25,218 nt of DNA from a virus: the IMG/VR virus record IMGVR_UViG_3300032038_000603, positions 1-25,218 of that record; one strand, 5' to 3'. Below, in pieces: positions 430-25,218 of the stretch. The notes beneath the pieces are model-generated. The model was given only the letters and a program-made list of their open reading frames with translations, searched no databases and was not told the origin of the DNA. The position numbers and the translations under genes were made by a program. Within the stretch, counting starts at the first letter, position 1; every line of letters begins with the position of its first letter.

Positions 430-660
430 ATGGCAATTAATGAGGATGTTCTCCAACACATTCATGAAAAACGTGCGGAGAATCCATATACACAACAAGT
501 GGGGTTTAGGCATAATGGAGGTAATGAACACATTGCCGATATTAATTCTTCTGATGCGGAATTAGAAGCTATTATGAATGAAACCTGGTTTTCAGAAGAA
601 GATGATGTTGAAATGGTTTCTAACCAATTAGCGCTACAAACCCAAAGAGGAGGCTATTGA
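430..660 (+). CDS. Hypothetical acidic 76-aa protein occupying the tape-measure position
   Basis: GGAGG at 416-420 lies upstream of ATG 430. Its stop TGA 658-660 overlaps the ATG 660 of the giant ORF. I recognise no family motif. Confidence 0.6.
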   Translation: MAINEDVLQHIHEKRAENPYTQQVGFRHNGGNEHIADINSSDAELEAIMNETWFSEEDDVEMVSNQLALQTQRGGY

Positions 661-1040
661 TGTTAATAAACAATATTGAATTAAGTAGTCTCGGCATCAA
701 GTTATATGATAGAGTCATTACAAGTAATCAGGTTAACACTAAAGAAGCATGGCTTGATGGTGATATACAGCCAACTCCAATTAGACAGCAAGATAGTTTT
801 AAAGATATCAGGCTGTCTTTTTTAGTATTAGGAAATGATGAAGATGATGCCTTTTTAAGAATTAGTAAATTAACTAGATTATTAAAAAAGGCAACTTTAA
901 AGTTTGATGATTTAGATTATTACTTTGATGTTAGTATGACTGGTAAAGCTGAACCTCAAAGATTAAAGAATGGTAATTTTGTAGTTGATTATAGTTTTAC
1001 TTCTGATTATGCAAAAGGTGAAAGAGAAATCTATACAACT
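660..1040 (+). other. Dit (distal tail protein) N-terminal belt-domain-like segment of the giant ORF
   Basis: The pattern KDIRLSFLVLGNDEDDAFLRISKLTRLLKKATLKFDDLDYYFDVSMTG...NFVVDYSFTSDYAKG mirrors the siphoviral Dit N-domain layout. Compare SPP1 gp19.1: RELEVDAIVFGD..LRRRIEYLNFLL..ITFSDEPSRTYYG..VTLNFYCQDPLKYG. Confidence 0.5.
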
Positions 1041-4000
1041 GATGCAAACTATACAAGTAGTTTTAAATTAACTATTTTATATTATCAGAATTCAACAACT
1101 CTATTATCAACAGATAGTATTACTGTTCGCGCAGCAATGTTTGAAGATACTGGTAATACATTTGCTTCTATAGGTATTGACGCAAATAAATATAGACCGA
1201 ATTATTATCAAGAAGGTATTGCTACAAATCTTGGTGGCAGAGAAATTACTTATGAAAACTTACAGTCATTAGGAACTCTTATTATTAATTATGCTCCTAT
1301 AGCTTATAATTTAACTATTAACTATTTTATGGACAATGGAACTGGTATTTACCAGGATATGTTTGTAAGTAATATACAATTTACATATCCGCAATTACAA
1401 AATATTCAGTCTATTGGACAGTTAGTAGATGTAAAAAGTTATAAACCAGAAGGTTATTTAGGAAGAATAGCTTTTACAGGAGCATTAACAGTTGAAAACT
1501 TATTAGCTGTAAGTCCAATTTATGTTTTCTATGATCAATTAGAGAACGATTTATCTAAAAGCATCACTGTCTCTTATTTAAAAGAAGACGATGATGGAAC
1601 TTATTCTACTGTTGGAGCTTTAACCAAAGTGTTTAAGCAAAGTGATTTCACTGATGGAATGACTCTTGGAGAAATTCTTAATGTAAATGCTTATAGACCA
1701 ACAGCCACTTATTATAATGAAGGTTATATTGAAGATCATAGTCTTACTGAATTAATTACATATGAAGATTTGAAAGTTAGTTATGAGATTAAATATGCTA
1801 AATCAACTAATATTGTATTTGTTGAATATTATGTTGGTGTATATCCAGGTTGGTATAGAGTATCTACAACCACACTTCGAACAGTATATAAAGAATCTTA
1901 TGAAGAAAGCTTTAGTCTTTCAGATATTAATTTAGATTTAAACAAATATCACACTTCAGAATATCAAAGTGGAGTTTTATATAATGGCAGTATCTATGAT
2001 AGTTATGATGCTGTTATTTCTGGTGGAGTATTACAGGTTTATTATGAACCAATTAACTATACAATCCAAGTTGGTTATTGGGTTCCAGAAGAAGAGCCTA
2101 TTGTAGAAGATGTTGTTATTAATGCTTTAGATTTTCTTGGAGATCCAGTATTAAGCGATATTATTCCAATAGCAAGTCATAGACCAGAAGGTTTCCAATT
2201 TGATGCTTTTCTTTCTTATGATGGACCTATTACTCTCGCGGGTTTGACTCAAGCTTCTCCAATTAATATTTACTATGAAGAAATAGTAGCTGCCCGCACA
2301 AAAAATATAATTTTAAAATACAAGCAAGAATTAGCTTCTACTTTTGCAACAATAAATACATCTATTATTACTATCAATGAAGCAGATACTATAAATGGTA
2401 TTAGACTTAAAGATGTATTTAATATGAATCTTTATAAGCCTGATTACTATGAAAATGGTATTTTAGATGGATACAGTTCAACTGCCCTTCTTAATTTTGA
2501 TGAAATTGAATCAGCTTATACCGTAGTTTATATGGCTTCTACTTTCATCACTCCAGTTAGATATTACACAGATGATGTAGATGATTTAAATTGGATTGGA
2601 AGTAGTTCAATATCCTATAAAGTTATTGATTTTACTATTGATACAACTTTATATGATTTAGGATTTAATATAAATGCTTATAAACCTAGTTATTGTGATG
2701 ATGGAGAACTTCAATATCATGGACCTATTAATTTTGAATCTTTAAGAAACTTAACAAGCCTAAATGTAGTTTATGAAACAATTATGGAGCCAGGTGGGGA
2801 TTTAGATTATCCACATAGATTCCTTTTCCTAGAGCACAATGATTTAGGTGATTATGAATACTTACATCCTAATTGGACAATGAACCATGCTTATATTAAT
2901 ACTGGAGTTTCAGTTGAAGATATGAGCAAATTAACCGTAGTTATGGAATGCGAACGTGTTGATAATGATGTTCCTTTACACAATGTTAATGCGGGCTTCG
3001 GTTATTTATTTGGTTCTCAATCTGCATTAGGATCTTACTATATGAGATTTAACAACCAGACACAGTATGGTGAGAATCTTACTGGAGTAAATACTTATGA
3101 AGCTCAAGCGGGTCTTTATTCTGATGCTTTGGTTCAGGCTGAAAGCTCTGCAATTGGTTTCTCTGCAAACTCTGGTATTTATGCTATTGAAAGACCAGGA
3201 TATTCTACTGCGGTCTTCACTTATAGCAACACAATGGCAAGCGAGGCCGCCCAAATGCCATATCCATTATATTTGTTCGCAAATAATAATGCTGGTCAAT
3301 ATGAGGAAGGTCTTGCTGGTATTGGTATTTATAGTTGTCGTATTTATTATAATGGAGCTTTGATTAGGGATTATATTCCAGTTCAATTCTATGATAAGAT
3401 TGGCGATCAAGTTGCTCCTTCAAATTGTTTGTATGATAAAATTACAGGCACTTTCTTTGAAGATGCTACTGGACAGAACAGTTTTAATATTAGAGACGAT
3501 GAAAGATATACAGATACTAATTTAGATCATAAGATCGGTCATTGTTATGTGAATTATTATAAGGGTGAAACTTTTATGCAAAATGTTGCTTATTATTTTA
3601 GAGCAAGTGATTTTGTAGATCAGATATTTGATCCTTATGAAAAATTCCAAATTGATTTATATCAACCATCATATTATAAATCTGGTGAAATTGTTAATGT
3701 TGAAAATTTAGTTTGGGATTTCGATAACATGAACAATGCTGTTTATACAGTCGTTTATCCAGAACAAGCAAATACAATTACAGTTAGATATTATACTGAA
3801 AATAGTGTTGGTGTTAGAACTCTTATCGAAGAGGAGACAATTGGAATATCTGAACAAGATTTCTATCAAGCTCCTACTTTTGGAGATATAGTTCGTATCA
3901 ATAAATATAAGCCAGAAGGATATGAAACTGATTTTGTATATCCTGGCACAAAAGTCTCTCTTACTAGAGTAGTTGATCATTCTCCTTATGAGATTGTTTA

Positions 4001-7000
4001 TAAAATTGCAGATAGAGAGCTTGAAACATATACAACAATAATTCGCTATATTAAAAAAGTTTATGGAATTAGAACTTATGAAACTATAGCTTCCGAAGTT
4101 TTAACCCTTGATGAAACTCAATTTAGAGATGGCGAATATATTGATTTTTATATAGATAAAAATCTTCATAAACCCGCTAATTTTTATAAAGATGGTGAGC
4201 CATATCAGTGGTATGAAATGGATGAGAAACTTGATACACCAAGCAAACTCAAAGAAATTTATACTATTGTATATCAAGTAGATACAACATATTTGGATGT
4301 AAATTATTATAAAAACTCTGTAAGCAGTGAAAATCTTATTGCTTCTACAACCTGGGGAATTAATATAGATGTTTTTGAACCAGGAATTCCAATTTATGTT
4401 TTAGATACTATTCCTAATGAATATATAAACAAGTATAAACCTTCAAATTGTAATGGTGGTCAAATACAAAATAGTTCTACTGCTTATCAAACATTTGCTG
4501 ACTTGGCCGCGATTGAAGAAATAGCTATAGTTTATGAAGAAACGACTCAACCGCACGATCCAGAATCTTTATCTTATGAACAAAAGGTTCTTTATTGGGG
4601 TGAAGTTAATGAGGAAGATTATTTTGATGATATTAATGGAAATACTCATTTCTATGGAGGAAGAATCCCTTATATTGATCTTGGGTATAAACCAAAAGAT
4701 TTAAGTAGATTAAGAGTTGAGTTAAAGGGTTATGCAAGACCTTGGGGTATTGGATCTAATACAGCTCAATATATGTATCAAGATTTAGGTTATACTTATT
4801 TCTTTGGATATTATGGTCCATTGGGTGAGTCTTATCTTGGCACTTCTGGAGCAAGTAGAGATGGTGTTGCAGCTTCTACTTCTGCTAATGGAACTCCAAG
4901 AGGTTCTGCGGTAAGTCCTTCTTCTTCTGGATGTTTTGGTTTTAGATGCAGAATTCCACAAGCTGGAGGATATGTATATTCAGCAGCTGGCCCGCAATCA
5001 ATTGATGGACAAACTTATTATAGAGCTGGAGATGGTATTGGAGTAATTTCTGGAGATCCACACCTTAAATACACAGGAATTGAAGCCGTTTATAGAAAAG
5101 GTAAATATAGTGATTATGATGATAATTATAATGTAATTAAAGGATTTAGTAATTATGGATTCACTAGGACAGACGAAGAAGATCTTCGTGAGATTATAAC
5201 AGACTTTGATCGTGTTCCAAATTGGTGTATTAATCGTGCTACTGGAGGAACTGATAGAATAAGAACTGCTTGCGGTAATCCTTATACAATAATTCTTGAT
5301 GCTTATAATAAATATGGGGCTGAATGGAGAGAAAGTGATAGTAATACTCCTACCACCTATATTTTTGATGAATCAGAAGACAATCCATTATTTGAAAATA
5401 TTTGTCAGCCTAAAGGAACATTATCATTATTCCAAACTACAAATCCAGATACTGGAAATGTGAATATAATGGCATTTAATCCAACAGTAATGCCTTTCCT
5501 TGGTAGTTCTAGTAGTTTAAACCTTTCTAACAACGCACTTGGTAATCCTTATGACAGAGACTTTTCAACTTCAGTCTCATATACAACTTGGGTAATAACA
5601 GGAACAAAGCAATCTTCTGAAGTAGAACAAGAGAAGCCGGGAACTATAGTTATGGAACAGAAGACTGAATCTAGGAATATTAATTATGCGACTTTCCCAG
5701 TGCCAGCTTTTCCTCAAATGACAGGTTGTGCTATTTGGGGCATTAAGATTTATGATCAAGATAGATTAGTAAGAAATCTTATCCCAGTGGCTCAAGGAGA
5801 TCAAGTATATGATTATGTAATGCCAGCTAATGGATTATTTGATCTGGTCACAGAGATCTTCTTTGGCAACTCAAATAAAGGTGGAACCTATACTTATGAT
5901 AGCTATTTAGCTCCTCAAACTGGAGGACCAGTTCATTCAGTTAGAACAATTGAAGCAAATGAGGTTTTACCTCTTAATTGTATCCTAGATCCTACAATTT
6001 TTGGTAAGACAATAGCTAATTATTATGATTATGATAATACATTTATTACAAATCAATTTGTAAATGTTCCTACTTGGTATAATAAAGCTAATGAAAATTT
6101 AGAAGATATTCTTCAATTCAATGATTATAAGCCTGATGATTTCCATCTTGATGGATTATTAGATTTAGATGTTGATTTAAGTTTCCAGAATATGTCTCTT
6201 GCAGATATTTATCTTATGGGAGCATTGAATATCTACTATAAATTAAGAAACTTTACCAAGACAGTTGTTTATTATAGAGATAATGTAAGAATAGGTTCAA
6301 GAGATATTTTCTATTCATTAGAAGATATTGAAAATGCTACTTCTTTAGCAGATCTTAATATTGATGTAGATTTATTCTACAATGAAGATTTTGCTCATGG
6401 TAGATTAGTGTTCGATGAATCAATAATTGAAAATGATGATATTGAAGCATTCATTGATGCTCCATCACCAATTGTTGTATATGATAAATTAACTAAACAA
6501 GAAGCTCCAAACTTATTGTATGTAGAATATTATAGACAAGGAGCTTATGATGATACATTAATTACAGTCAATGAAAATAGTCCTAACTATTTAGATTGTA
6601 ATTTAAGTGCGGTTGTATTAAATCCTAACGGAGCTATTAAATATTACAACCACTATCATACAGCCTTATATGAGGATGAAGATTATGATTACTTCATTCC
6701 TTATCAAGTGTATGTTAGAAATAAGTTTGCTGGTATCCATAGAGGCCCAGCCCGCAAGTTCCCTACTTTAGCTATGATTGTTGAAAATGACAATTATACA
6801 ATTATTGAAGAGAGAAATGGATGGGGTCGTCTTGATGAATACCAAGCAGGATGGATTTTATTAAATCAAACTGATCCTATTACAGGTCCAGGACAGAATC
6901 CAGATTATGATGTAGCTGATCAAGAGACGGCTACTATTCCTTTTGGATCTACCATTACCATAACCAAAATGACAATAGACAGATTATGGTGTTATTGTCC

Positions 7001-9503
7001 TGCTCAAGATAGCTGGATTAAGAATGAAGATATTTCATTTAACCAAGCTGGTAAGCTTTATAATGGATTAGGAATTGAGGTAATTCATTTAGATGAGATT
7101 AATTTCTCTAGTCCTACTTTAGATTCTATTGGAATTAATCCACAACAATATAAGTTAAGATTCCATGAACAAGCACAAGTTCCTATGCTTACTTTATCTT
7201 ATGCAAGTCTTTCAGATTTACATGAAATAGAGTTTGTATATCCTGAAACAATTTACAGTTATACTTGTAAATATTATCAGTATCAAGCAATTCCAGTTAA
7301 TCTTTTAGGCACGGCCGCATTTACTTGTTCTATTTCAGATTGGAATCCAGATTGGGAGAAATTCATAGAAACTTCTTGGCGGCAAGCTGAATTAATAGAT
7401 TATGGATATCTTCAAACTAAAAATACTGTAGATCCTCATTATTTAGTTGTTTATTCTGAATCAGATGATTCTTCAGCATCTGTAATTACTTATCCAACAG
7501 ACGGTAAAACTGTTTTAAGAATTACTGGGCCAATGACTCAACAATTTTATCCAGTGCAAAGTTGTGATAATGATTCAATTGTTGGTTATGTTAAAGCTAG
7601 AGATTCAGATTATTATCAATTAATTTCTGAATATGGAGGAACTATTACTGCTGATGTTGAACCAATTCTTTATAGAGATACAGAATTAGTATTAACTTGG
7701 GATTATTTTGGATTTGATAAAAACCTTTATAAACCATTAGGTTTTGGAGATGGTATTTATCTTTGGAATCCAAGACCTTGGAATAAAGATAATATTCAAT
7801 TTACATTTAATGAATTAGTTAGATGTGGAACACAATATGTTGTATATCCACCATTTGATCCTAATACTTATAAATTATGGAATCAACCTAATTATTTAGG
7901 AGTATATTATACTGTTTATCATACAGAAGGTTCTAACGAAATTAGGTATATTAAGAATCGTGGTATTAGTATTAATATGGCAGGAACATATGACTATTTT
8001 GAACCAGGAGAATATAGCGAACATAAAATTTATGACATTTATACTTCTGGGGAAATGACAAGACCATTTGTAAAAACAAGTGATACTTTAGACACTTCTG
8101 AAGATACATCTTACACTACTAGAACTTGGAATAGTGCATTATATTGGTATGATAATCGAGATGAATCTAATTCTCATACAACTGGTTATGTTCTTCCTTA
8201 TGTAGGAACTTGGGATTCAAGAAGTGGAAATATTCAAACTTTACTTGATAACCCAGAAATTGGAGATAGTTATTTTTATACATTCTCTAACTTTAGAAGT
8301 AGTCCTACTGTTGTTCTTGGTCTTGGTAATGAATATCTTAATAAAATTTCAAGATATTATTTACTTAAGAATATGAGCAGCACAATGTATGATGCAGATT
8401 GGCTTCGTATATATGATAATACTAATATTAACAGATACGCACTTGGTAAAGGTAGAGCAGATAAATATCTTATGACTGCAGATCCATATACCAATAATGT
8501 TATTCAAGGTGATAATGATTATGAACATTTAAGAGGTATTATTTATGACAATATAGCTTATGAGAACTTTATGATGATTCACTATTGGGTCCCAGTTCCA
8601 AAAGGTGTGAGATACAATTGGAATAATCAAGAAGAAAGAATCCCAGATAATGGATTATTTGATTTATTAACTGGTGATTTTGCTAGAAGCTATAGATTAA
8701 CCGATGGTGCTATTAAGCCTTATAGCGATTATCCTAATACTTTACAGCCAACTAGAGATGGTAATGATTTAATCTTCTTAAGAAATCAAACTGTTAATGA
8801 GAATAATGCATACAACTATTTTGCTAATAAAGAATTTGAGTATGAAACTATTAATACTATTTATCAAACAAATACGGCTGTTCAAACTTATAATTGGCCA
8901 GATACTTATGCAAATAGAATGTATAATCTTGCTCAATATACAGTTGTTCCAGGGACTAAATATGTTGATCCGCAAGCTAATTTGATTACAGGTAGTTGGG
9001 TGTTTGCTGGAAATCAATGGATTCCAGAGAATGCTTTAACTCCTGCTTCTGGAGATGTAGTTAATAGATTTACTTATACTAATGAAAAACAAACATTATG
9101 TTTAAGACCTACTCAATATGATAGCACTGTTAAAGCTTATCCAAATCCTGGTTATTTAAATGAAGATGGAGTTGATTATGGTTCTAATCCAATAGTAGTA
9201 GATTCTTATTGCACTTGTTATTCAACTTCTCTCCAAAGGGTTCAAGCTTACTTTATAGGAGATGGTTGGGTTTCTGCATCTCAAAGTCAAAACAGAGTGG
9301 TTGAAGATGGAACTAATTATGTAGTTGCAGTGAATACAAATTATTACCAGTATCCAATAGAGGATAATAATTACTTAATTGATCAATATCATTATGGTGA
9401 TAGAATTACCTCTATTCACACATTATATGCGGATAGTGATTGGATTTATACTGGTATAGGATGGATTAAGAAAACAGCTAATAACTTATCAATAGTTGAA
9501 TAA
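660..9503 (+). CDS. Giant (2947 aa) tail-tip adhesin-like protein: Dit N-domain-like head fused to MucBP-like repeats, three lectin/jelly-roll-like modules and SH3b-like domains
   Basis: The ORF is 8844 nt with no interruption. GGAGG at 649-653 lies 6 nt before ATG 660 (the track starts it at TTG 657). It is translationally coupled to the upstream ORF (TGATG). Domain calls come from motif reading, detailed in the sub-features. Confidence 0.9.
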   Translation: MLINNIELSSLGIKLYDRVITSNQVNTKEAWLDGDIQPTPIRQQDSFKDIRLSFLVLGNDEDDAFLRISKLTRLLKKATLKFDDLDYYFDVSMTGKAEPQRLKNGNFVVDYSFTSDYAKGEREIYTTDANYTSSFKLTILYYQNSTTLLSTDSITVRAAMFEDTGNTFASIGIDANKYRPNYYQEGIATNLGGREITYENLQSLGTLIINYAPIAYNLTINYFMDNGTGIYQDMFVSNIQFTYPQLQNIQSIGQLVDVKSYKPEGYLGRIAFTGALTVENLLAVSPIYVFYDQLENDLSKSITVSYLKEDDDGTYSTVGALTKVFKQSDFTDGMTLGEILNVNAYRPTATYYNEGYIEDHSLTELITYEDLKVSYEIKYAKSTNIVFVEYYVGVYPGWYRVSTTTLRTVYKESYEESFSLSDINLDLNKYHTSEYQSGVLYNGSIYDSYDAVISGGVLQVYYEPINYTIQVGYWVPEEEPIVEDVVINALDFLGDPVLSDIIPIASHRPEGFQFDAFLSYDGPITLAGLTQASPINIYYEEIVAARTKNIILKYKQELASTFATINTSIITINEADTINGIRLKDVFNMNLYKPDYYENGILDGYSSTALLNFDEIESAYTVVYMASTFITPVRYYTDDVDDLNWIGSSSISYKVIDFTIDTTLYDLGFNINAYKPSYCDDGELQYHGPINFESLRNLTSLNVVYETIMEPGGDLDYPHRFLFLEHNDLGDYEYLHPNWTMNHAYINTGVSVEDMSKLTVVMECERVDNDVPLHNVNAGFGYLFGSQSALGSYYMRFNNQTQYGENLTGVNTYEAQAGLYSDALVQAESSAIGFSANSGIYAIERPGYSTAVFTYSNTMASEAAQMPYPLYLFANNNAGQYEEGLAGIGIYSCRIYYNGALIRDYIPVQFYDKIGDQVAPSNCLYDKITGTFFEDATGQNSFNIRDDERYTDTNLDHKIGHCYVNYYKGETFMQNVAYYFRASDFVDQIFDPYEKFQIDLYQPSYYKSGEIVNVENLVWDFDNMNNAVYTVVYPEQANTITVRYYTENSVGVRTLIEEETIGISEQDFYQAPTFGDIVRINKYKPEGYETDFVYPGTKVSLTRVVDHSPYEIVYKIADRELETYTTIIRYIKKVYGIRTYETIASEVLTLDETQFRDGEYIDFYIDKNLHKPANFYKDGEPYQWYEMDEKLDTPSKLKEIYTIVYQVDTTYLDVNYYKNSVSSENLIASTTWGINIDVFEPGIPIYVLDTIPNEYINKYKPSNCNGGQIQNSSTAYQTFADLAAIEEIAIVYEETTQPHDPESLSYEQKVLYWGEVNEEDYFDDINGNTHFYGGRIPYIDLGYKPKDLSRLRVELKGYARPWGIGSNTAQYMYQDLGYTYFFGYYGPLGESYLGTSGASRDGVAASTSANGTPRGSAVSPSSSGCFGFRCRIPQAGGYVYSAAGPQSIDGQTYYRAGDGIGVISGDPHLKYTGIEAVYRKGKYSDYDDNYNVIKGFSNYGFTRTDEEDLREIITDFDRVPNWCINRATGGTDRIRTACGNPYTIILDAYNKYGAEWRESDSNTPTTYIFDESEDNPLFENICQPKGTLSLFQTTNPDTGNVNIMAFNPTVMPFLGSSSSLNLSNNALGNPYDRDFSTSVSYTTWVITGTKQSSEVEQEKPGTIVMEQKTESRNINYATFPVPAFPQMTGCAIWGIKIYDQDRLVRNLIPVAQGDQVYDYVMPANGLFDLVTEIFFGNSNKGGTYTYDSYLAPQTGGPVHSVRTIEANEVLPLNCILDPTIFGKTIANYYDYDNTFITNQFVNVPTWYNKANENLEDILQFNDYKPDDFHLDGLLDLDVDLSFQNMSLADIYLMGALNIYYKLRNFTKTVVYYRDNVRIGSRDIFYSLEDIENATSLADLNIDVDLFYNEDFAHGRLVFDESIIENDDIEAFIDAPSPIVVYDKLTKQEAPNLLYVEYYRQGAYDDTLITVNENSPNYLDCNLSAVVLNPNGAIKYYNHYHTALYEDEDYDYFIPYQVYVRNKFAGIHRGPARKFPTLAMIVENDNYTIIEERNGWGRLDEYQAGWILLNQTDPITGPGQNPDYDVADQETATIPFGSTITITKMTIDRLWCYCPAQDSWIKNEDISFNQAGKLYNGLGIEVIHLDEINFSSPTLDSIGINPQQYKLRFHEQAQVPMLTLSYASLSDLHEIEFVYPETIYSYTCKYYQYQAIPVNLLGTAAFTCSISDWNPDWEKFIETSWRQAELIDYGYLQTKNTVDPHYLVVYSESDDSSASVITYPTDGKTVLRITGPMTQQFYPVQSCDNDSIVGYVKARDSDYYQLISEYGGTITADVEPILYRDTELVLTWDYFGFDKNLYKPLGFGDGIYLWNPRPWNKDNIQFTFNELVRCGTQYVVYPPFDPNTYKLWNQPNYLGVYYTVYHTEGSNEIRYIKNRGISINMAGTYDYFEPGEYSEHKIYDIYTSGEMTRPFVKTSDTLDTSEDTSYTTRTWNSALYWYDNRDESNSHTTGYVLPYVGTWDSRSGNIQTLLDNPEIGDSYFYTFSNFRSSPTVVLGLGNEYLNKISRYYLLKNMSSTMYDADWLRIYDNTNINRYALGKGRADKYLMTADPYTNNVIQGDNDYEHLRGIIYDNIAYENFMMIHYWVPVPKGVRYNWNNQEERIPDNGLFDLLTGDFARSYRLTDGAIKPYSDYPNTLQPTRDGNDLIFLRNQTVNENNAYNYFANKEFEYETINTIYQTNTAVQTYNWPDTYANRMYNLAQYTVVPGTKYVDPQANLITGSWVFAGNQWIPENALTPASGDVVNRFTYTNEKQTLCLRPTQYDSTVKAYPNPGYLNEDGVDYGSNPIVVDSYCTCYSTSLQRVQAYFIGDGWVSASQSQNRVVEDGTNYVVAVNTNYYQYPIEDNNYLIDQYHYGDRITSIHTLYADSDWIYTGIGWIKKTANNLSIVE
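1060..2790 (+). repeat. Array A: seven tandem ~77-85-codon beta-rich repeats (MucBP-like), each carrying a Y(K/R/H)P..(Y/F) motif
   Basis: The motif Tyr/His codons fall at 1191, 1440, 1692, 1947, 2178, 2433 and 2679. The motifs are KYRPNYY, SYKPEGY, AYRPTATYY, KYHTSEY, SHRPEGF, LYKPDYY and AYKPSYC. Each repeat is flanked by V.Y / I.YY strand-like motifs. The copies are diverged at the nucleotide level. Confidence 0.7.
2800..3500 (+). other. Module J1: lectin/jelly-roll-like domain ending in ...LYLFANNNAG..IGIYSCRIYYNGALIRDYIPV...CLYDKITGTFFEDATGQNSF
   Basis: Its C-terminal signature (LFa.n....iy..kIy..g.l(I/V)R(D/N)(Y/L)IPV....G(L)(Y/F)D..t..FF.n.g) is shared with J2 and J3. I recall the signature from uncharacterised phage tail-associated proteins but cannot name the family. 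Confidence 0.4.
3540..4545 (+). repeat. Array B: four more MucBP-like repeats (LYQPSYY, KYKPEGY, LHKPANFY, KYKPSNC)
   Basis: It has the same Y(K/Q)P motif and V.YY strand pattern as array A, read from the translation. Confidence 0.65.
4590..5920 (+). other. Module J2: second lectin/jelly-roll-like domain with a large Gly/Ser-rich insertion
   Basis: It starts YWGEVNEEDYFDDINGNTHFYGGRIPYIDLGYKP and ends CAIWGIKIYDQDRLVRNLIPVAQGDQVYDYVMPANGLFDLVTEIFFGNSNKGGTY. The end is parallel to the J1 C-terminal signature. Confidence 0.4.
6010..6700 (+). repeat. Array C: about three degenerate copies of the same repeat (DYKPDDF plus weaker copies)
   Basis: The strand motifs IANYYDYD, KTVVYYRDN and LLYVEYYRQG recur at repeat spacing. 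Only the first copy retains a clear YKP motif. Confidence 0.4.
6708..7040 (+). other. Two SH3b-like domains inside the giant ORF
   Basis: VYVRNKFAGIHRGPARKFPTLAMIVENDNYTIIEERNGWGRLDEYQAGWILLN is a typical bacterial SH3 pattern (G.W..v....GW(I/V)). A weaker second copy follows: TITITKMTIDRLWCYCPAQDSWIKNEDI. Confidence 0.5.
7930..8710 (+). other. Module J3: third, more diverged copy of the J-type module
   Basis: It ends ...IIYDNIAYENFMMIHYWVPVPKGVRYNWNNQEERIPDNGLFDLLTGDFARSY. It shares the PV....NGLFDL.T..F signature with J2. The start boundary is uncertain. Confidence 0.3.
8925..9490 (+). other. C-terminal triplet of SH3-like / cell-wall-binding-like units
   Basis: Three units each end in an aromatic-Gly-Trp motif: GSWVFAGNQWIPENAL, YFIGDGWVSASQS and WIYTGIGWIKKTANNL. 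Confidence 0.35.
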
Positions 9504-9514
9504 GGGAGGCAAAT

Positions 9515-9865
9515 ATGGAGAATTATTATCCAATTGAATTCGATAATAATGGTAGCAGTTTCACTATCACAAATAATGGAACTGCTCCAGCTCCTTGCCT
9601 GATAACTTTTATACCTCAAGTAGATTTCATCACTCTTTCCATTACTGGATTGAGTGATGAACCTATAGAGGTAAGTGGAATTCGAGCTAATGATGTCTTG
9701 GTCATTGATGGAGAGAATAGACAAGTCCTTCTCAATGATCAAGATTATTTTAGCCATTATAATGGTTGGGAATTCCCAAAGTTGCAGCCAGGAGTGAATG
9801 AAATTAGAATCCCTAGTGGATCATTGGCTAATATTCAAATAGAATATAATGCGAGGTATATCTAA
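9515..9865 (+). CDS. Dit C-terminal-domain-like protein (116 aa)
   Basis: GGGAGG lies upstream of ATG 9515. The sequence FTITNNGTAPAPCLITF...ITGLSDEPIEVSG.RANDVLVIDGENRQVLLNDQD...FPKLQPGVNEIRIP...IQIEYNARYI matches the siphoviral Dit/Sipho_tail C-half pattern (N.G....P.i.i......gd.l.iD......v.lng......f..L.pG.N.i......i.y...y). Confidence 0.55.
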   Translation: MENYYPIEFDNNGSSFTITNNGTAPAPCLITFIPQVDFITLSITGLSDEPIEVSGIRANDVLVIDGENRQVLLNDQDYFSHYNGWEFPKLQPGVNEIRIPSGSLANIQIEYNARYI

Positions 9866-10896
9866 TGTTCAAAATATATGATACTAATAAGCATTTTCTT
9901 ATGCTTTTAGATTCCTGCCAAGATATTCATACTATTGAACAATTAGCCACAGGGACAAGAAACCTAGAGTTTTATGCCCCAGTTAATGACATAAATTTAG
10001 CCAATTTAGTAGAGGAAAACTACCTCGAGACCGCAGATTATAGCTACATAATTAAAGAAGTGATAATGAATGATAATTCCTTCTTTAAGGTATTTTGTAT
10101 AGCTAATTATGAAGAATTGGCTGGAATCAATTTTGAAGTATTCGATTTATATAGATTAAACCTACAACAAGGTTATGAATATTGTATAAGCCAAGCTCCA
10201 GAATGGTCTATTGATTATAGAAGTGGGAATAGGACAATGATTACTTATCAAGAACCTAATAAGTCAGGTTTTGAGATGATCAAGACCATTGCCGCAGATA
10301 ACAATCAAGAGCTTTGGTTTGATACAAAAAATAAGAAGGTGATTATTTACGATCAAGGTCAAATGGGGAAAGAGATTGGAACTTATTATTCAAACGAATT
10401 GAAGCTCCAACAATTATCCAAACAATCATCTTCTTATGAATATTGCACTGTCCTCTATCCTTATGGAAAAGACGGACTTAATATATCTTCAGTTAATGGA
10501 GGAAAGAAATATCTTACTAATAACATATACACAAACAAATACATCGAGAAGGTATGGGTCGATGAGAAGTATGAGTATGCTGAAGATTTAAAGAAGGCTG
10601 CTGAAATGTATCTTGAAGAACTTGCACAGCCTAAATGTAGTTATAAGTTAAAGCTTTCTTCTATTGGCGATGAAGTTCAATTAGGAGATACCATTTTCCT
10701 AGTTGATAAACTCAAGAGGATTAAACAAAAGCAGAGAGTTGTTAAGATAGTAAGATATCCAAAGCAACCTGAAAAATCTGTAATTGAAATATCTAACTTG
10801 AGATTAGATTTTACTACAACATATTTAAAAAACCAGGAAAAGATAAAACAAGATATAGATTACATAAAGAAGCAAATTGATTTGTTGAGACAATAA
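9865..10896 (+). CDS. Tail-associated (Tal) N-terminal gp27-like baseplate hub protein / phage minor structural protein N-terminal region (343 aa, short form)
   Basis: It has an ATG/TAA overlap with the upstream ORF and sits immediately after the Dit-like gene. The sequence MFKIYDTNKHFLMLLDS...TGTRNLEFYAP...YIIKEV... fits the prophage-tail N-terminal family pattern. Confidence 0.6.
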   Translation: MFKIYDTNKHFLMLLDSCQDIHTIEQLATGTRNLEFYAPVNDINLANLVEENYLETADYSYIIKEVIMNDNSFFKVFCIANYEELAGINFEVFDLYRLNLQQGYEYCISQAPEWSIDYRSGNRTMITYQEPNKSGFEMIKTIAADNNQELWFDTKNKKVIIYDQGQMGKEIGTYYSNELKLQQLSKQSSSYEYCTVLYPYGKDGLNISSVNGGKKYLTNNIYTNKYIEKVWVDEKYEYAEDLKKAAEMYLEELAQPKCSYKLKLSSIGDEVQLGDTIFLVDKLKRIKQKQRVVKIVRYPKQPEKSVIEISNLRLDFTTTYLKNQEKIKQDIDYIKKQIDLLRQ

Positions 10897-12695: not shown

Positions 12696-12815
12696 ATCTA
12701 AAAATTTTTCTAATTTTTTGGACAAAACTAATTTGGCGATCTTTTTCAATTTTCAAAATCTAATGAGGGGGAAGATTTTCTAAAAAATTTTTTTTTGAAA
12801 AGGAGAAAAAGACAA

Positions 12816-13316
12816 ATGTTAAAAGATATTAAAGGTTATGAAGGTTTATATGCTGTTACTGAAGAAGGACAGGTGTGGAGTTATAGAAAACAAAAGTTTT
12901 TAAAACCTTGGGATGATTCTCATGGTTATTTAAAAGTAGGATTAGTTGTAAATTATCATAAAGATCAAAGACGAGTACATAGATTGGTTTTAGAAACTTT
13001 TAATCCAGTAGAAGGAATGGAAAATCTTGAAGTTAATCATCTCGATGAAGATAAAACTAATAATAAATTAACCAATCTTTCTTGGAGCACTAGATTAGAA
13101 AATGTTAGACATGGCACTGGAATTCAAAGATCAGCACTTACAAGAAGTAAACCAGTAGCGCAATTAACTAAACAGGGAGAAATAATTGCAACTTACCCTT
13201 CTATTAGTGAAGCTGCTAGACAGACTGGGGCAAAAAAAGCAAGAATTTCAATGTGTTGTAATGGAAAAGCAATATCAACACACGGATATAAATGGAGGTT
13301 TATAGATGGAAAATAA
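12816..13316 (+). CDS. NUMOD4/HNH_3 homing endonuclease with a C-terminal helix-turn-helix (HTH, NUMOD1/IENR-like) motif
   Basis: AGGAG at 12801-12805 precedes ATG 12816 (the track starts at TTG 12795). The motifs are IKGYEGLYAVTEEGQVWS (NUMOD4), VHRLVLETF...VNHLDEDKTNNKLTNLSWSTRLEN (HNH) and YPSISEAARQTG...GYKWRF. Confidence 0.85.
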   Translation: MLKDIKGYEGLYAVTEEGQVWSYRKQKFLKPWDDSHGYLKVGLVVNYHKDQRRVHRLVLETFNPVEGMENLEVNHLDEDKTNNKLTNLSWSTRLENVRHGTGIQRSALTRSKPVAQLTKQGEIIATYPSISEAARQTGAKKARISMCCNGKAISTHGYKWRFIDGK

Positions 13317-13734: not shown

Positions 13735-14184
13735 ATGTATAATAAAAAAGTTTATAAAGCACAATTAGATGCTATAGAGGCTTCTGCTCCTGGAAAGTAT
13801 GATTGTGCAGGAATATATTCTATCTCTATTGGAGGGAAATTAGTTTATATAGGTAAGTCTAATGATGTAAAAACAAGAATTGCTTTTCATATAATGAACT
13901 TAACAGATCAATCAATAAGAGATTCTCACTCACACAAGTATGATGTAATAAGAGAGGCTGTTGGAAGAAAAATAATTGTTGAGTTTGACTTATTATACAA
14001 AGCTAAAGAGATAGATAAAGAAAAGATTCAAGAAGAAATTGGTATTAAAGAAGGAGAATTAATACGAAAATATATGCCTCCTTTAAATTATCAAATACCA
14101 AAAGAAAAAAATTATAAAAGATATACAGTACAAAAAACTGCAAAAACAATTACTTTAGATGAGATTATGGACGATTCTAAATAA
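13735..14184 (+). CDS. GIY-YIG nuclease (free-standing homing-endonuclease-like, catalytic domain only)
   Basis: AAGGAG lies upstream. The motifs are GIYSISIGGKLVYIGKSNDVKTRIAFH (GIY...YIG...R) and EGELIRKYMPPLNYQ (E...N). Confidence 0.8.
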   Translation: MYNKKVYKAQLDAIEASAPGKYDCAGIYSISIGGKLVYIGKSNDVKTRIAFHIMNLTDQSIRDSHSHKYDVIREAVGRKIIVEFDLLYKAKEIDKEKIQEEIGIKEGELIRKYMPPLNYQIPKEKNYKRYTVQKTAKTITLDEIMDDSK

Positions 14185-21398: not shown

Positions 21399-22172
21399 AT
21401 GGCTAATGAAATTTATACAATCGATAATGAATTAGTTATTGAGGCTAGTTTATCAAACCCTACCTATAAAGGTGAAAGTGGAAAGACTCCTGTAAAATGG
21501 GTCGATTATTTTACTCCAGAAGATATTGTAGAAATTGCGGAACAAATTACTTCTTTAGAAGTAGAAGTGCCAACAAAATTAAGTGAACTGCAAAATGATG
21601 TTGGTTTTATTACTTCTTACACAGAAACTGACCCTACAGTACCTAGTTGGGCAAAACAATCTACGAAACCTAGTTATACTGCTAGTGAAGTTGGAGCTTT
21701 AGAATCCACAGCACCAGCGGCCGCAATCACTAATAATGATATTAGTAATTGGAATAATAAGTCTGATTTCAGTGGTTCTTATGAAGATTTAACTGACAAA
21801 CCAACCATTCCTAGTGCTTATACTCTTCCTGCTGCTTCTACATCTATTCTTGGAGGAGTTAAAGTAGATGGTTCTACTATTACTATTGATAATAATGGGA
21901 TTATTAGTTCTACTTCTTCTGGAGGAGGAGTTAGTTATACAGCTGGAAATAATATATCTATAAATAATGGAGTTATTTCTGCTACTGATACTGATACTAC
22001 TTATACAGCTGGAACGGGCATTAATATTGATGCAAATAATGAAATTAGTGTCACTGTTCAAGGACTTCCAACTCAGTCTTCTACAGATGGTACTTATATT
22101 CTTATGTCAACAGTGTCTTCTGGTGTTGCTACCCAATCTTGGGAATCTGTTACAGTAGGAGGTAGTTATTGA
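21399..22172 (+). CDS. Fibre protein (neck, head or tail fibre-like)
   Basis: The motifs are LSELQNDVGFIT, DPTVPSWAKQSTKPSYTASEVGA and YEDLTDKPTIP. Repeats of the type YTAGNNISINNGVIS / YTAGTGINIDANNEIS are typical of phage fibre shafts. Confidence 0.65.
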   Translation: MANEIYTIDNELVIEASLSNPTYKGESGKTPVKWVDYFTPEDIVEIAEQITSLEVEVPTKLSELQNDVGFITSYTETDPTVPSWAKQSTKPSYTASEVGALESTAPAAAITNNDISNWNNKSDFSGSYEDLTDKPTIPSAYTLPAASTSILGGVKVDGSTITIDNNGIISSTSSGGGVSYTAGNNISINNGVISATDTDTTYTAGTGINIDANNEISVTVQGLPTQSSTDGTYILMSTVSSGVATQSWESVTVGGSY

Positions 22173-23311
22173 TGGCTTATAGTTTAGAAAATACAATAGA
22201 TTTAACAAATCTTGCCAATGCTATTAGAGCAAAGACTGGTGGCAATAGTAGTATGACTGTTGCTGAAATGGCTACTGAAGTTAGCACTATTTCTGGTGGA
22301 GAGACAATAGACTCTAGAATATTTCAAATGCCTACTAATGTTCAATCTCTTTTTTCTGAGAATAGGTGGCAATATTTGCTTCAACAATATGCTGATAGAC
22401 TCGTTTTTCCTAGTTCTGGGGTATCTGGTTCAAGTATGTTTCAAGGATCATCATATTTAACTGATGAATTAGCTCCTATATCATTGGTATTGAATACACA
22501 ATCCACTTCTCATAGTATGTTTTATAATTGTAATGATTTAACAGATATACCTACATTGTCTGGGACTGTATACAATAATATAAATCAGATGTTTAGTGGT
22601 TGTTATAGGTTACGAACAATACCCGATGCAAAAGTAGCTAATTTAAATTTTTCTACAAACTTTAATAATTATGCTGGTTCAACTGGCGCTCAAAGTATTT
22701 TTCAAGACTGTAGGTCATTAAGGGCCATTCCAAGCCATCTTTTAACGCATATTTATACAAGTGGAACCAATGCGAATAGTAGTGGTTATGTTAATCAATT
22801 TAGGAATTGTTATTGTTTAGATGAAATTGTTGGTTTACATGTAAGTTCTACTCAGTCTAAAAAAGCAAATATGTTTTCAAGTACTTTTTATTGGTGTTGT
22901 AGATTAAAAAATTTAACTTTTATTACTAATAATGGAACTCCTTATTCAAGAACTTGGTCTAATCAAAGTATTGATTTAAGTACAGGTGTGGGGTATTTCT
23001 TCCCCACAACAGGTGCACTATTAGGAAACTCTGGAATTACCACTAATAAAGAAGTAACTGATGCAGCATCATATGCAGTTTTAAAAAGTGATCCAGATTG
23101 GTATACATTAGATGTAGCATATTCTAGATATAATCACGACTCAGCTGTAGCAACAATTAATTCTTTACCAGATTGCTCAGCAGGTTCTAACAATGTAATT
23201 ACATTTTTAGGTGCTTCAGGATCTGCAACTGATGGAGGAGCTATTAACACTTTAACCTCAGCAGAGATAGCGGTTGCTACTAATAAAGGATGGACCGTTA
23301 CTCTGGTATAA
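22172..23311 (+). CDS. BspA-type leucine-rich-repeat (LRR_5-like) protein
   Basis: AGGAGG at 22157-22162 precedes ATG 22172 (the track starts at TTG 22169). F..C..L..IP units recur: FYNCNDLTDIP, FSGCYRLRTIP, FQDCRSLRAIP, FRNCYCLDEI and FYWCCRLKNLT. Confidence 0.65.
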   Translation: MAYSLENTIDLTNLANAIRAKTGGNSSMTVAEMATEVSTISGGETIDSRIFQMPTNVQSLFSENRWQYLLQQYADRLVFPSSGVSGSSMFQGSSYLTDELAPISLVLNTQSTSHSMFYNCNDLTDIPTLSGTVYNNINQMFSGCYRLRTIPDAKVANLNFSTNFNNYAGSTGAQSIFQDCRSLRAIPSHLLTHIYTSGTNANSSGYVNQFRNCYCLDEIVGLHVSSTQSKKANMFSSTFYWCCRLKNLTFITNNGTPYSRTWSNQSIDLSTGVGYFFPTTGALLGNSGITTNKEVTDAASYAVLKSDPDWYTLDVAYSRYNHDSAVATINSLPDCSAGSNNVITFLGASGSATDGGAINTLTSAEIAVATNKGWTVTLV

Positions 23312-24142: not shown

Positions 24143-24562
24143 ATGTTAGAAAAAATTAAAACACAGTTTGTTCAGTTCTTAAAAGACCTGGGATACAGTG
24201 TTACCGACAATGGAACATATAAAGAAGAGTTTCCTTGGTTAATGGTTAGAACTGGAGGATATCAATCTACAGTAAGCTTAGATGTAAGATATGATATTGT
24301 AACTCTTACTTTAGATATTTTTTCTACCTACAATGGGGAACAAGAAATAATTAACATTGGTGAGAATATCATAAATCACTTACAAAATTTGCGGGCAGTG
24401 GCTCCAGAGATCACCGCAGTGGGACAAAACAGTATGGTTGTCCTAGGTGATAAGGAAACAGGGCCTGTCCGTAAACACGGAGTGCTTACTTATAGATTTG
24501 TTCTTGCTTCTGGATTACAAGAGGAGGAAGATGATGAAACAACAAGTGCAACAGGGAATTGA
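24143..24562 (+). CDS. Tail completion protein (DUF3168 / gp17-like)
   Basis: GGAGGGG lies upstream. It sits just before the major tail gene. The N-terminal pattern L..I...f..fL..lg and the size fit the family. Confidence 0.55.
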   Translation: MLEKIKTQFVQFLKDLGYSVTDNGTYKEEFPWLMVRTGGYQSTVSLDVRYDIVTLTLDIFSTYNGEQEIINIGENIINHLQNLRAVAPEITAVGQNSMVVLGDKETGPVRKHGVLTYRFVLASGLQEEEDDETTSATGN

Positions 24563-24920
24563 TGTAATTCTTTATATCAATAATAAAGCAGTTGCTGGAC
24601 AACAAAATGTAAGTTTAAACCGTTCTTCTTCTCCTTTGGATATTACAAATAAAATTACTGGAGATTGGCAAGAACGGTTAATTGGATTAAGAACCTGGAG
24701 TATTAATTGCTCTGGGCTTTATATTGTTAATTCTACAAGCTATTCTCTTTTGGAAGGTGCTTTTATGAATAACAATGATATAGAAGTTGAAATTAGAATT
24801 AAAGATAAAACTTATAAAGGTAACGCAATCATTACAAGCTTTCCCTTATCTGCTGGATATAATGGACAGTTTCAATATCGAATTGCGTTATTAGGTAATG
24901 GAGCTTTAGAAACCGTATGA
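24531..24920 (+). CDS. Major tail (tube) protein, TP901-1/phi13-like, 129 aa
   Basis: GAGGAGGA at 24521-24528 precedes ATG 24531 (the track ORF starts earlier, at 24447). The sequence is GIDVILYINNKAVAGQQNVSLNRSSSPLDITNK..GDWQERL.GLRTWSINCSGLY...YKGNAIITSF......G. Confidence 0.65.
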   Translation: MMKQQVQQGIDVILYINNKAVAGQQNVSLNRSSSPLDITNKITGDWQERLIGLRTWSINCSGLYIVNSTSYSLLEGAFMNNNDIEVEIRIKDKTYKGNAIITSFPLSAGYNGQFQYRIALLGNGALETV

Positions 24921-25218
24921 TTTTATATAAAAACAATATTCTATATAGTTTTAGGTTTGGACTTAAAGGGTTAATAATCTTAAACGATTTATTATATTTA
25001 AATGAAGACATTAAGTTGTTGACGTATTATGCTGGATTTATCACCGATCAACCTAATATGTCATTACAAGATGTTCAATCCTTACTAATGGAATGTTCTG
25101 ATAATCAAATCGATTTATTAAACACGTATATTGATAAAAATTTATCTCTAAAATCTCCTTTAGAAATCGAGGAGCTATACACCAGAATCGTAGGAGAAAT
25201 GGGTATAGCTCCTTCTGA
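24917..25218 (+). CDS. Tail assembly chaperone-like protein, 5' part (runs off the window; continues as 3..425)
   Basis: ATG 24917 overlaps the major tail protein stop (ATGA). I translated it by hand as MILYKNNILYSFRFGLKGLIILNDLLYLNEDIKLLTYY..., with no stops to the window end. Confidence 0.6.
   Translation, partial: MILYKNNILYSFRFGLKGLIILNDLLYLNEDIKLLTYYAGFITDQPNMSLQDVQSLLMECSDNQIDLLNTYIDKNLSLKSPLEIEELYTRIVGEMGIAPS
25005..25218. repeat. Terminal direct repeat, copy 2 (equals 1..214)
   Basis: See copy 1. The single difference is C25123 versus T119. Confidence 0.95.

Follow-up and report, generated by a model that had tools for sequence, protein, structure and literature searches.

A distal tail protein distributed over two cistrons, one of them giant, in a clade of small siphovirus-like gut phages

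The distal tail protein (Dit) is, to our knowledge, the universal hub of siphophage tail tips and has so far been described as a single chain, whether classical, evolved or ring-only. Here we analyze the tail-tip locus of IMG/VR virus record IMGVR_UViG_3300032038_000603 (positions 1 to 25,218, the whole stretch examined, hereafter the window), in which a giant open reading frame (ORF) of 2,947 amino acids (aa) is followed by a 116-aa ORF. Our results strongly support one Dit distributed over these two cistrons, with the ring domain on the giant protein and the galectin-like domain encoded separately. The initial annotation of the window knew of no such split arrangement for Dit, and our open-literature searches agree, having returned no description of a split Dit, of separately encoded Dit domains or of siphophages without a tape measure gene.

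Dit N-domains form a hexameric ring with a 40-Å channel, and the galectin-like domains lie at the ring periphery, where they make no mutual contact and in some phages anchor receptor-binding proteins (PMC7291167). Both domains of the classical Dits (SPP1 gp19.1, PDB 2X8K; TP901-1; p2 ORF15; 80alpha; PF05709 plus PF22768) have homologues in the window, which also shares the position directly upstream of Tal; unlike in classical Dits, they belong to two polypeptides, split by 2,819 extra residues and a stop codon, and are not preceded by a tape measure gene. Evolved Dits keep a single chain, into whose galectin-domain loops one or two carbohydrate-binding modules are inserted (PMC7291167). In phages such as Lactobacillus J-1/PL-1, S. 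thermophilus and lactococcal phages and Bxb1, they make the hub a platform for host-binding modules, as we propose here, but in the window the extra chain begins at the domain boundary, is about 10 times longer and ends the polypeptide. Lambda gpM, which is ring-only, and T5 pb9, which carries an OB fold, indicate that the ring works without a covalent galectin domain (PMC7291167); unlike the window, their phages have no separately encoded galectin domain and no fiber fused to the ring protein. In Ceduovirus (c2, bIL67), the hub ring is made from two Hcp-like gene products (PMC12474359). The likeness lies in a hub ring function spread over two adjacent genes of a small siphophage genome, but there paralogous ring subunits alternate in a hetero-hexamer, whereas here the ring domain comes from one gene and only the peripheral domain from the other. 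Long host-binding appendages at the tail tip, as proposed here, are also known from TP901-1 (BppU), T5 (pb1 with the p132 collar) and lambda (Stf). Those fibers are proteins in their own right, attached to Dit or to the tube, whereas in the window the fiber would be the Dit chain itself.

The two halves of Dit and their junction

All genes of the window lie on the plus strand. The giant ORF (660-9503) starts with the ATG at 660 and ends with the TAA at 9501-9503, and its residues 1 to about 125 had been annotated as following the Dit N-domain pattern. We compared residues 1-150 exhaustively with 1.84 billion representative proteins using phmmer and sorted the resulting 126 matches with a hidden Markov model (HMM) of the family of standalone 116-aa proteins. 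Of the 126 matches, 48 were single-chain Dits with lengths of 175-261 aa (46 of them 210-261 aa); their N-termini align to giant residues 1 to ~125, and their residues from ~130 to the end match the HMM of the 116-aa family. A further seven were evolved Dits whose C-domain is interrupted by an insertion at HMM position ~78, and 38 consisted of the N-domain and a long extension without a C-domain. The top classical Dit was P0140 (236 aa; E 1.5e-23, 44% identity), which sits in locus L007 between the C-terminus of a tape measure protein and a Tal. We thus assign giant residues 1-128 (660-1043) to the N-terminal ring domain of classical Dits (Hcp or tube-like, RIFT-related), and across the giant protein family no other part is as well conserved. 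In the AlphaFold2 (AF2) model of the joined halves described below, it has a predicted local distance difference test score (pLDDT) of 95-98. Direct profile matches are weaker: the first 147 residues alone reach phrog_33 (Dit) at E 0.005 over profile positions 41-184, and Pfam Sipho_tail has no direct match in the giant protein of the window and a weak one in relatives. The N-domain had no tblastn match among the GenBank phages of the August 2025 collection.

The 116-aa ORF (9515-9865) had been annotated as the C-terminal half of Dit, an assignment borne out by its match to Pfam PF22768 (SPP1_Dit), which covers the full profile, positions 1-97 of 97, at E 2.5e-11 and 44.1 bits (cut-off 25). 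The ORF also matches positions 174-278 of phrog_33 at E 2e-21. The profile match is uninterrupted, so the domain lacks the loop insertions of evolved Dits, whose HMM match among the phmmer hits is split. An AF2 model based on 41 homologues has a pLDDT of 91.8, and its best Foldseek matches in the PDB are the Dit chains of 80alpha (6v8i_AC), monocin (9j1k_K) and SPP1 (2x8k), followed by the Douge, NF5 and p2 baseplates, with each match covering about half of the target. The protein is therefore not a complete, unrelated fold, an outcome that would have spoken against the initial annotation. It ends in the same Y-x-A-R-Y-I as single-chain Dits. At its other end, it carries an 11-residue conserved peptide (Y4, P6, I7, F9) that classical Dits lack and that shows little order in the models. 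In PDB sequence searches, neither the giant protein nor the 116-aa protein nor their profiles had a significant match (SPP1 2x8k reached E 0.36). With tblastn, the 116-aa protein found ordinary Dits only (phiSM101, GBSV1 and two faecal contigs). MT835666 proved to be a normal phage with a tape measure protein (TMP), Dit and Tal.

When the two halves were joined, they behaved as one Dit. The joined sequence matches phrog_33 in a single collinear stretch, positions 41-278, at E 4.6e-27, and aligns end to end with P0140 in BLASTP (37% identity, E 1e-58), leaving unaligned only giant residues 129-150 and the first 11 residues of the 116-aa ORF; a 43-sequence alignment gave the same end-to-end result. 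The AF2 model of giant residues 1-128 joined to the 116-aa protein has a pLDDT of 93.6 and a predicted template modeling score of 0.83. In Foldseek, it retrieved whole Dit chains of SPP1, TP901-1 (4v96), p2 (2wzp_P), 80alpha (6v8i_AC) and monocin, with E values against solved Dits of 1.5e-15 (monocin 9j1k_K) to 1e-10, and it also matches Bxb1. It superposes on SPP1 2x8k_C with template modeling (TM) scores of 0.77/0.78 and a root mean square deviation of 3.3 Å over 259 columns. The BLASTP and Foldseek scores exclude a chance resemblance to Dit. Among the checks that the initial annotation had proposed, the comparison of the concatenated halves with Dit profiles, known structures and uninterrupted Dits came out in favor of its reading of the two halves.

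The spacer between the two cistrons is 11 nucleotides (nt) long (GGGAGGCAAAT, 9504-9514) and carries the ribosome-binding site (RBS) GGGAGG at 9504-9509, as the initial annotation had read it together with the ATG of the second half. Its description of the interruption as in frame needs correction: relative to the giant ORF, the second cistron is in the -1 frame, which is closed by a TGA at 9497-9499, so neither read-through nor frameshifting can fuse the two. The galectin-like domain is not on the same polypeptide as the ring; the TAA, the closed frame and the separate RBS and ATG show the two domains to be separate polypeptides. Spacers in relatives measure -4 to +22 nt and likewise contain G-rich, RBS-like sequences.

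Conservation and history of the split

Homologues of the 116-aa protein form at least 120 clusters, 104-122 aa in length and nearly all 114-122 aa, among the matches listed, and giant homologues form >120 clusters of 2,832-3,033 aa that are collinear over their full length. All six loci from public assemblies have the order tube, two small ORFs, giant of 2,881-3,038 aa, Dit C-domain protein of 115-117 aa and Tal of ~340 aa. In IMG/VR, a standalone ORF of 115-134 aa lies -4 to +20 nt after the giant in all nine related loci on contigs of 24-27 kb, whereas all ten of the more distant matches, found on contigs of 28-46 kb, are ordinary Dits of 232 aa (one of 404 aa), nearly all directly behind an ORF the size of a tape measure gene. 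Throughout the assembly and IMG/VR loci, the Dit C-domain ORF directly follows the gene bearing the Dit N-domain.

Between the window and the related loci L001 or L004, identity is 67-70% in the ring domain, 64-68% in the 116-aa protein, 51-55% in Tal, 54-61% in the putative fiber shaft and 35-37% in the last 700 residues of the giant. The similar, high identity of the ring domain and the 116-aa protein indicates that both Dit halves are under strong and similar constraint. Comparison across these loci shows that the split arrangement is fixed in a clade of siphovirus-like gut phages of 16-27 kb and is maintained there by purifying selection. The clade is abundant in gut metagenomes, where it accounts for >120 clusters at 90% identity. 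Its hub would be missed by annotation pipelines that expect a Dit of ~230 aa behind a tape measure gene; they would label the 116-aa protein "Dit" and the giant "hypothetical".

More distant relatives (L008, L009, L010, L014, L015-16 and L017-18; contigs of 12-20 kb) have the same gene order with a shorter extension. Their proteins with a Dit N-domain and extension measure 488-1,054 aa (extensions of ~350-900 residues) and are followed by a protein of 214-221 aa (L008:2670-3266, L009:13187-13849, L010:5618-6262, L014:3191-3856, L015:1872-2531, L017:10092-10754) and a ~340-aa Tal. The C-terminal half of the 214-221 aa protein is the Dit C-domain (hhalign probability 97.9%, E 5e-13). An initial hhalign match that extended into the N-domain raised the possibility of a decayed second Dit left by a duplication; this was dropped, since the N-terminal halves of these proteins alone matched the Dit N-domain with a probability of <1%. 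That half is an extra, well-conserved domain of ~110 aa (MYPNLQYNPIEIP...) without detectable homology to anything.

Because these distant relatives are already split and have far shorter extensions, the split probably predates the giant. The giant itself appears to have grown in place by duplication, as indicated by its 13 repeats, its three modules, the homology of its module A to ~600-aa relatives and its uniform G+C (GC) content, and would have arisen from an ancestor of ~500-1,000 aa without a single 8.4-kb insertion. The initial annotation had pictured a Dit gene interrupted by an ~8.4-kb adhesin block and then resolved into two cistrons; the two-cistron Dit stands, but the relatives with short extensions speak against one large insertion.

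The giant protein and a proposed tail hub

The extension of the giant begins directly after the ring domain with seven tandem repeats of ~84 aa (residues 129-708; 1044-2783) that carry the motif N-x-Y-K-P-x-x-Y. Globular module A (residues ~709-950; 2784-3509), with the conserved segment 886-939 ("IYYNGALIRDYIPV"), separates them from four further 84-aa repeats (residues 951-1293; 3510-4538) found by profile-profile comparison. The middle of the predicted fiber (residues ~1294-2244; 4539-7391) comprises a poorly conserved region, module B (conserved segment 1674-1727), a single repeat (1773-1857) and an SH3b-like region (~2040-2070). The fast-evolving C-terminal ~700 residues, together with the TAA (7392-9503), include the weakest repeat (2307-2391) and another module segment (2594-2647) and are presumed to be the receptor-binding end; their identity is 35-40%, against 54-66% upstream in the same pairs. 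Altogether the 84-aa repeat occurs 13 times, with unit-to-unit profile probabilities of up to 99.7% (E 1.7e-26), and the globular module occurs three times, each copy with the conserved 50-aa segment. Module A is homologous to the center of the ~600-aa relatives that have a Dit N-domain and extension (probability 94.3%, 180 columns).

The giant is rich in beta and turn residues. Pfam and PHROG scans of the whole protein and three homologues found nothing except a sub-threshold SH3_3; this domain is recorded for several homologues, with P0131 scoring E 2.8e-4, below the Pfam cut-off. Some of the shorter extensions in relatives carry Listeria-Bacteroides or InlB-type repeats (Flg_new/Flg_new_2, Listeria-Bacteroides/InlB B-repeat; P0142, P0150, P0162 and P0215). 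An identification of the giant as an InlB B-repeat adhesin was rejected, as it has neither a Pfam match to Flg_new or Flg_new_2 nor a profile link to these repeats. Its position suggested a tape measure protein, a candidate that its composition and its Dit-type N-terminus rule out: helix-forming residues make up 30% of the giant versus 44-48% of two tape measure proteins, Tyr makes up 9.4% versus 1.7%, and no stretch of 120 aa is tape-measure-like.

The explanation that we favor, and hold to be reasonably probable, is a two-cistron Dit with a fiber-bearing ring subunit and a galectin-like domain that docks in trans. Six giant subunits would form the hexameric ring between the last ring of the tail tube and the Tal trimer. 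From each, the chain would exit at the ring periphery, where the galectin domain normally begins, and continue as a string of beta-rich domains of ~2,800 residues, giving six very long fibers rooted in the hub, with the rapidly diverging C-terminal ~700 residues as the host-binding end. The galectin-like domain would be made from its own RBS 11 nt downstream, translationally coupled to Tal, and may dock back on the hub in trans, possibly via its N-terminal peptide. Evolved Dits take small modules in loops; a fiber as large as this one could only be terminal, and the domain downstream of it would then have to be supplied separately. A conserved two-gene Dit would make the ring and peripheral domains separable assembly units and would mean that the ring subunit itself can root a 334-kDa fiber, whose fast-evolving tips are natural candidates for host-range determinants. 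The arrangement is thus of interest both for the structural biology of tail tips and for the annotation of gut phages.

Several points weigh against this explanation. Binding of the 116-aa protein to the ring is extrapolated from known Dit hubs, and the alignment behind the joined AF2 model consists of single-chain Dits, so the packing of the domains in the model is inherited from them and gives no independent sign of association. It is the architecture and the divergence gradient that suggest a fiber or adhesin role for the extension, which had no match in sequence and profile searches of the PDB, and whose 84-aa repeats, as noted, show no profile link to the InlB-type repeats (Flg_new_2) of shorter relatives; "adhesin", the term used for the block in the initial annotation, is accordingly kept only as a putative role, the two-cistron Dit being the firmer part of that description. 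Giant homologues also stay within a narrow size range (2.83-3.03 k aa), an uncommon feature among repeat adhesins. Finally, with no tape measure gene, the canonical TMP-Dit-Tal initiation complex, on which the proposed ring is based, cannot form as described, and it is mainly this absence that limits our confidence in the mechanism.

The 116-aa protein may instead have left the hub after the split, giving up the canonical place next to the ring domain, and become a free carbohydrate-binding decoration, an adaptor on the fiber or Tal, or an assembly factor. We regard this as possible but unlikely. Its conserved N-terminal peptide without counterpart in classical Dits, the additional ~110-aa domain of unknown fold in the counterpart from the distant lineage, and the overlap of its stop with the start of Tal, which would also suit a Tal partner, are compatible with such a change of role. 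Against it, the protein retains the full Dit C-domain profile and the Y-x-A-R-Y-I ending, is conserved in step with the ring domain (64-68% versus 67-70%) and is always encoded directly after the gene bearing the Dit N-domain.

The missing tape measure and the rest of the genome

The two ends of the contig overlap by 214 nt (1-214 versus 25005-25218) with one mismatch, leaving 25,004 unique bases; the window is a complete genome, circular or terminally redundant, and the ORFs at its two ends are consequently one wrapped gene. A tape measure gene was not found in this complete 25,004-bp genome, in which every ORF >150 aa is accounted for and no gap is large enough, nor in any relative examined (16-27 kb), and no segment of the giant has a tape-measure-like composition. 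In phages with a classical Dit (L007, the phage of P0140; phiSM101; MT835666), the chaperone pair, TMP, Dit and Tal are all present, as usual. In the window, the Dit genes do not lie between a tape measure gene and tal: Tal follows, and two small ORFs precede the giant.

All relatives examined share the order tube, ORF of ~80-170 aa, ORF of ~50-86 aa and Dit N-domain with extension. In the window, the tube gene (major tail protein, 128 aa; 24534-24920; Pfam Phage_tail_2, E 8e-20; phrog_1407) is followed by a 170-aa ORF that wraps around the contig ends (ATG at 24917, 24917-25218 continuing at 215-425) and by a 76-aa acidic protein (430-660) whose TGA overlaps the ATG of the giant (TGATG). By comparison with the gene order of phiSM101, these two ORFs occupy the position of the tail chaperones G/T before the tape measure gene, and the 76-aa ORF lies in the +1 frame relative to the 170-aa ORF. 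The motif VGE(M/I)GI(A/P)P..(F/Y)..M(T/S)..E(I/L)..AYEG(F/Y) of the 170-aa protein is kept across the clade. Searches of Pfam, PHROG and homologues returned no match for either protein as a chaperone or mini tape measure, and hhalign comparisons with the chaperones and TMPs of phiSM101 and MT835666 gave none either.

Among close relatives, L001, L004, L005 and the IMG/VR loci L021-L026 are rich in in-frame TAG codons (68 among the 6,060 codons of L001), and none of their genes ends in TAG. As TAG mostly aligns with Gln and the database spells it Q, TAG is read as glutamine in these relatives (code-15-like). By comparison, 24 genes of the window lack TAG altogether, 17 of them stopping at TAA and 7 at TGA. 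No tRNA gene, including a suppressor, was found in the window or in the stretches examined of seven related loci.

A wider possibility, doubtful in our view, is that the clade builds a tubed, non-contractile tail without a TMP, in which the hexamer of ring domains and fibers, together with the two small proteins encoded upstream, would replace the TMP-Dit-Tal complex in nucleating the tube and perhaps in determining its length, or else that its members are satellites relying on a helper phage for a tape measure, a TAG suppressor and lysis functions. On the tape-measure-free reading, the split Dit would belong to this same remodeling of how the tail is initiated. The lack of a tape measure is the more radical of the questions that the clade raises, and together with the TAG-to-Gln change in relatives it offers a tractable test case for tube initiation and measurement without the canonical machinery.

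Less probable still is that the element is a helper-dependent satellite or an incomplete phage whose tail assembly borrows tape measure, suppressor tRNA, lysis and replication, with the split Dit as a by-product of minimization and not a means of anchoring fibers. A complete 25,004-bp circle in which no replication or lysis genes, and no tape measure gene, were recognized would fit such an element, as would relatives that use TAG as a sense codon and yet had no tRNA gene in the stretches examined. However, terminase, portal, capsid, connectors, tube, terminator, Dit and Tal are all encoded by the element itself, and the giant gene takes up one third of a supposedly minimized genome, which speaks for a function that is needed; moreover, a foreign tape measure would have to fit the element's own Dit-Tal cavity, and no helper was identified. 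An artefact, be it a sequencing or assembly frameshift, a pseudogenized Dit or a programmed frameshift or read-through giving a fused protein, can be taken as already refuted by the comparative data, for only the short gap of 11 nt between the ORFs speaks for it, and against it stand the two-ORF layout in 15 of 15 independent related loci (44-95% identity), a boundary stop that is TAA even in the TAG-recoded relatives, a -1 frame shut by a TGA six codons before the ATG, and the lack of any fused homologue among 149 matches to the 116-aa protein.

GC content is ~32% along the entire genome and equal in the extension block of the giant. The gene order runs from an integrase, HNH and GIY-YIG nucleases, small and large terminase, portal and a Mu-F-like head protein through scaffold, capsid, head-tail adaptor, a 257-aa fiber-like protein, a 380-aa leucine-rich-repeat-like protein and the Neck1 tail completion protein to the tail terminator, tube, 170-aa ORF, 76-aa ORF, giant ORF, 116-aa ORF and a short Tal. 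The latter (343 aa; 9865-10896; Pfam Prophage_tail, E 7e-33) has the structural domain only, and its start overlaps the stop of the 116-aa ORF (TAATG). A megablast search of the genome against GenBank phages gave no match, and a scan of genome contigs for prophages or hosts returned a single unrelated 1.1-kb fragment.

The genes for the 257-aa protein (21399-22172), which has fiber-like repeats (DLTDKPT, ISxxxNNxIS), and the 380-aa BspA/DUF285-type leucine-rich-repeat-like protein (22169-23311), whose L009 counterpart matches Pfam DUF285, are placed between the head-tail adaptor and Neck1/terminator genes, an unusual site for what may be neck or head appendages. Just upstream of the small terminase gene lie an HNH/NUMOD4 endonuclease gene (12795-13316) and a weak GIY-YIG endonuclease match (13735-14184), and in relatives the corresponding position is occupied by one or two NUMOD4 genes.

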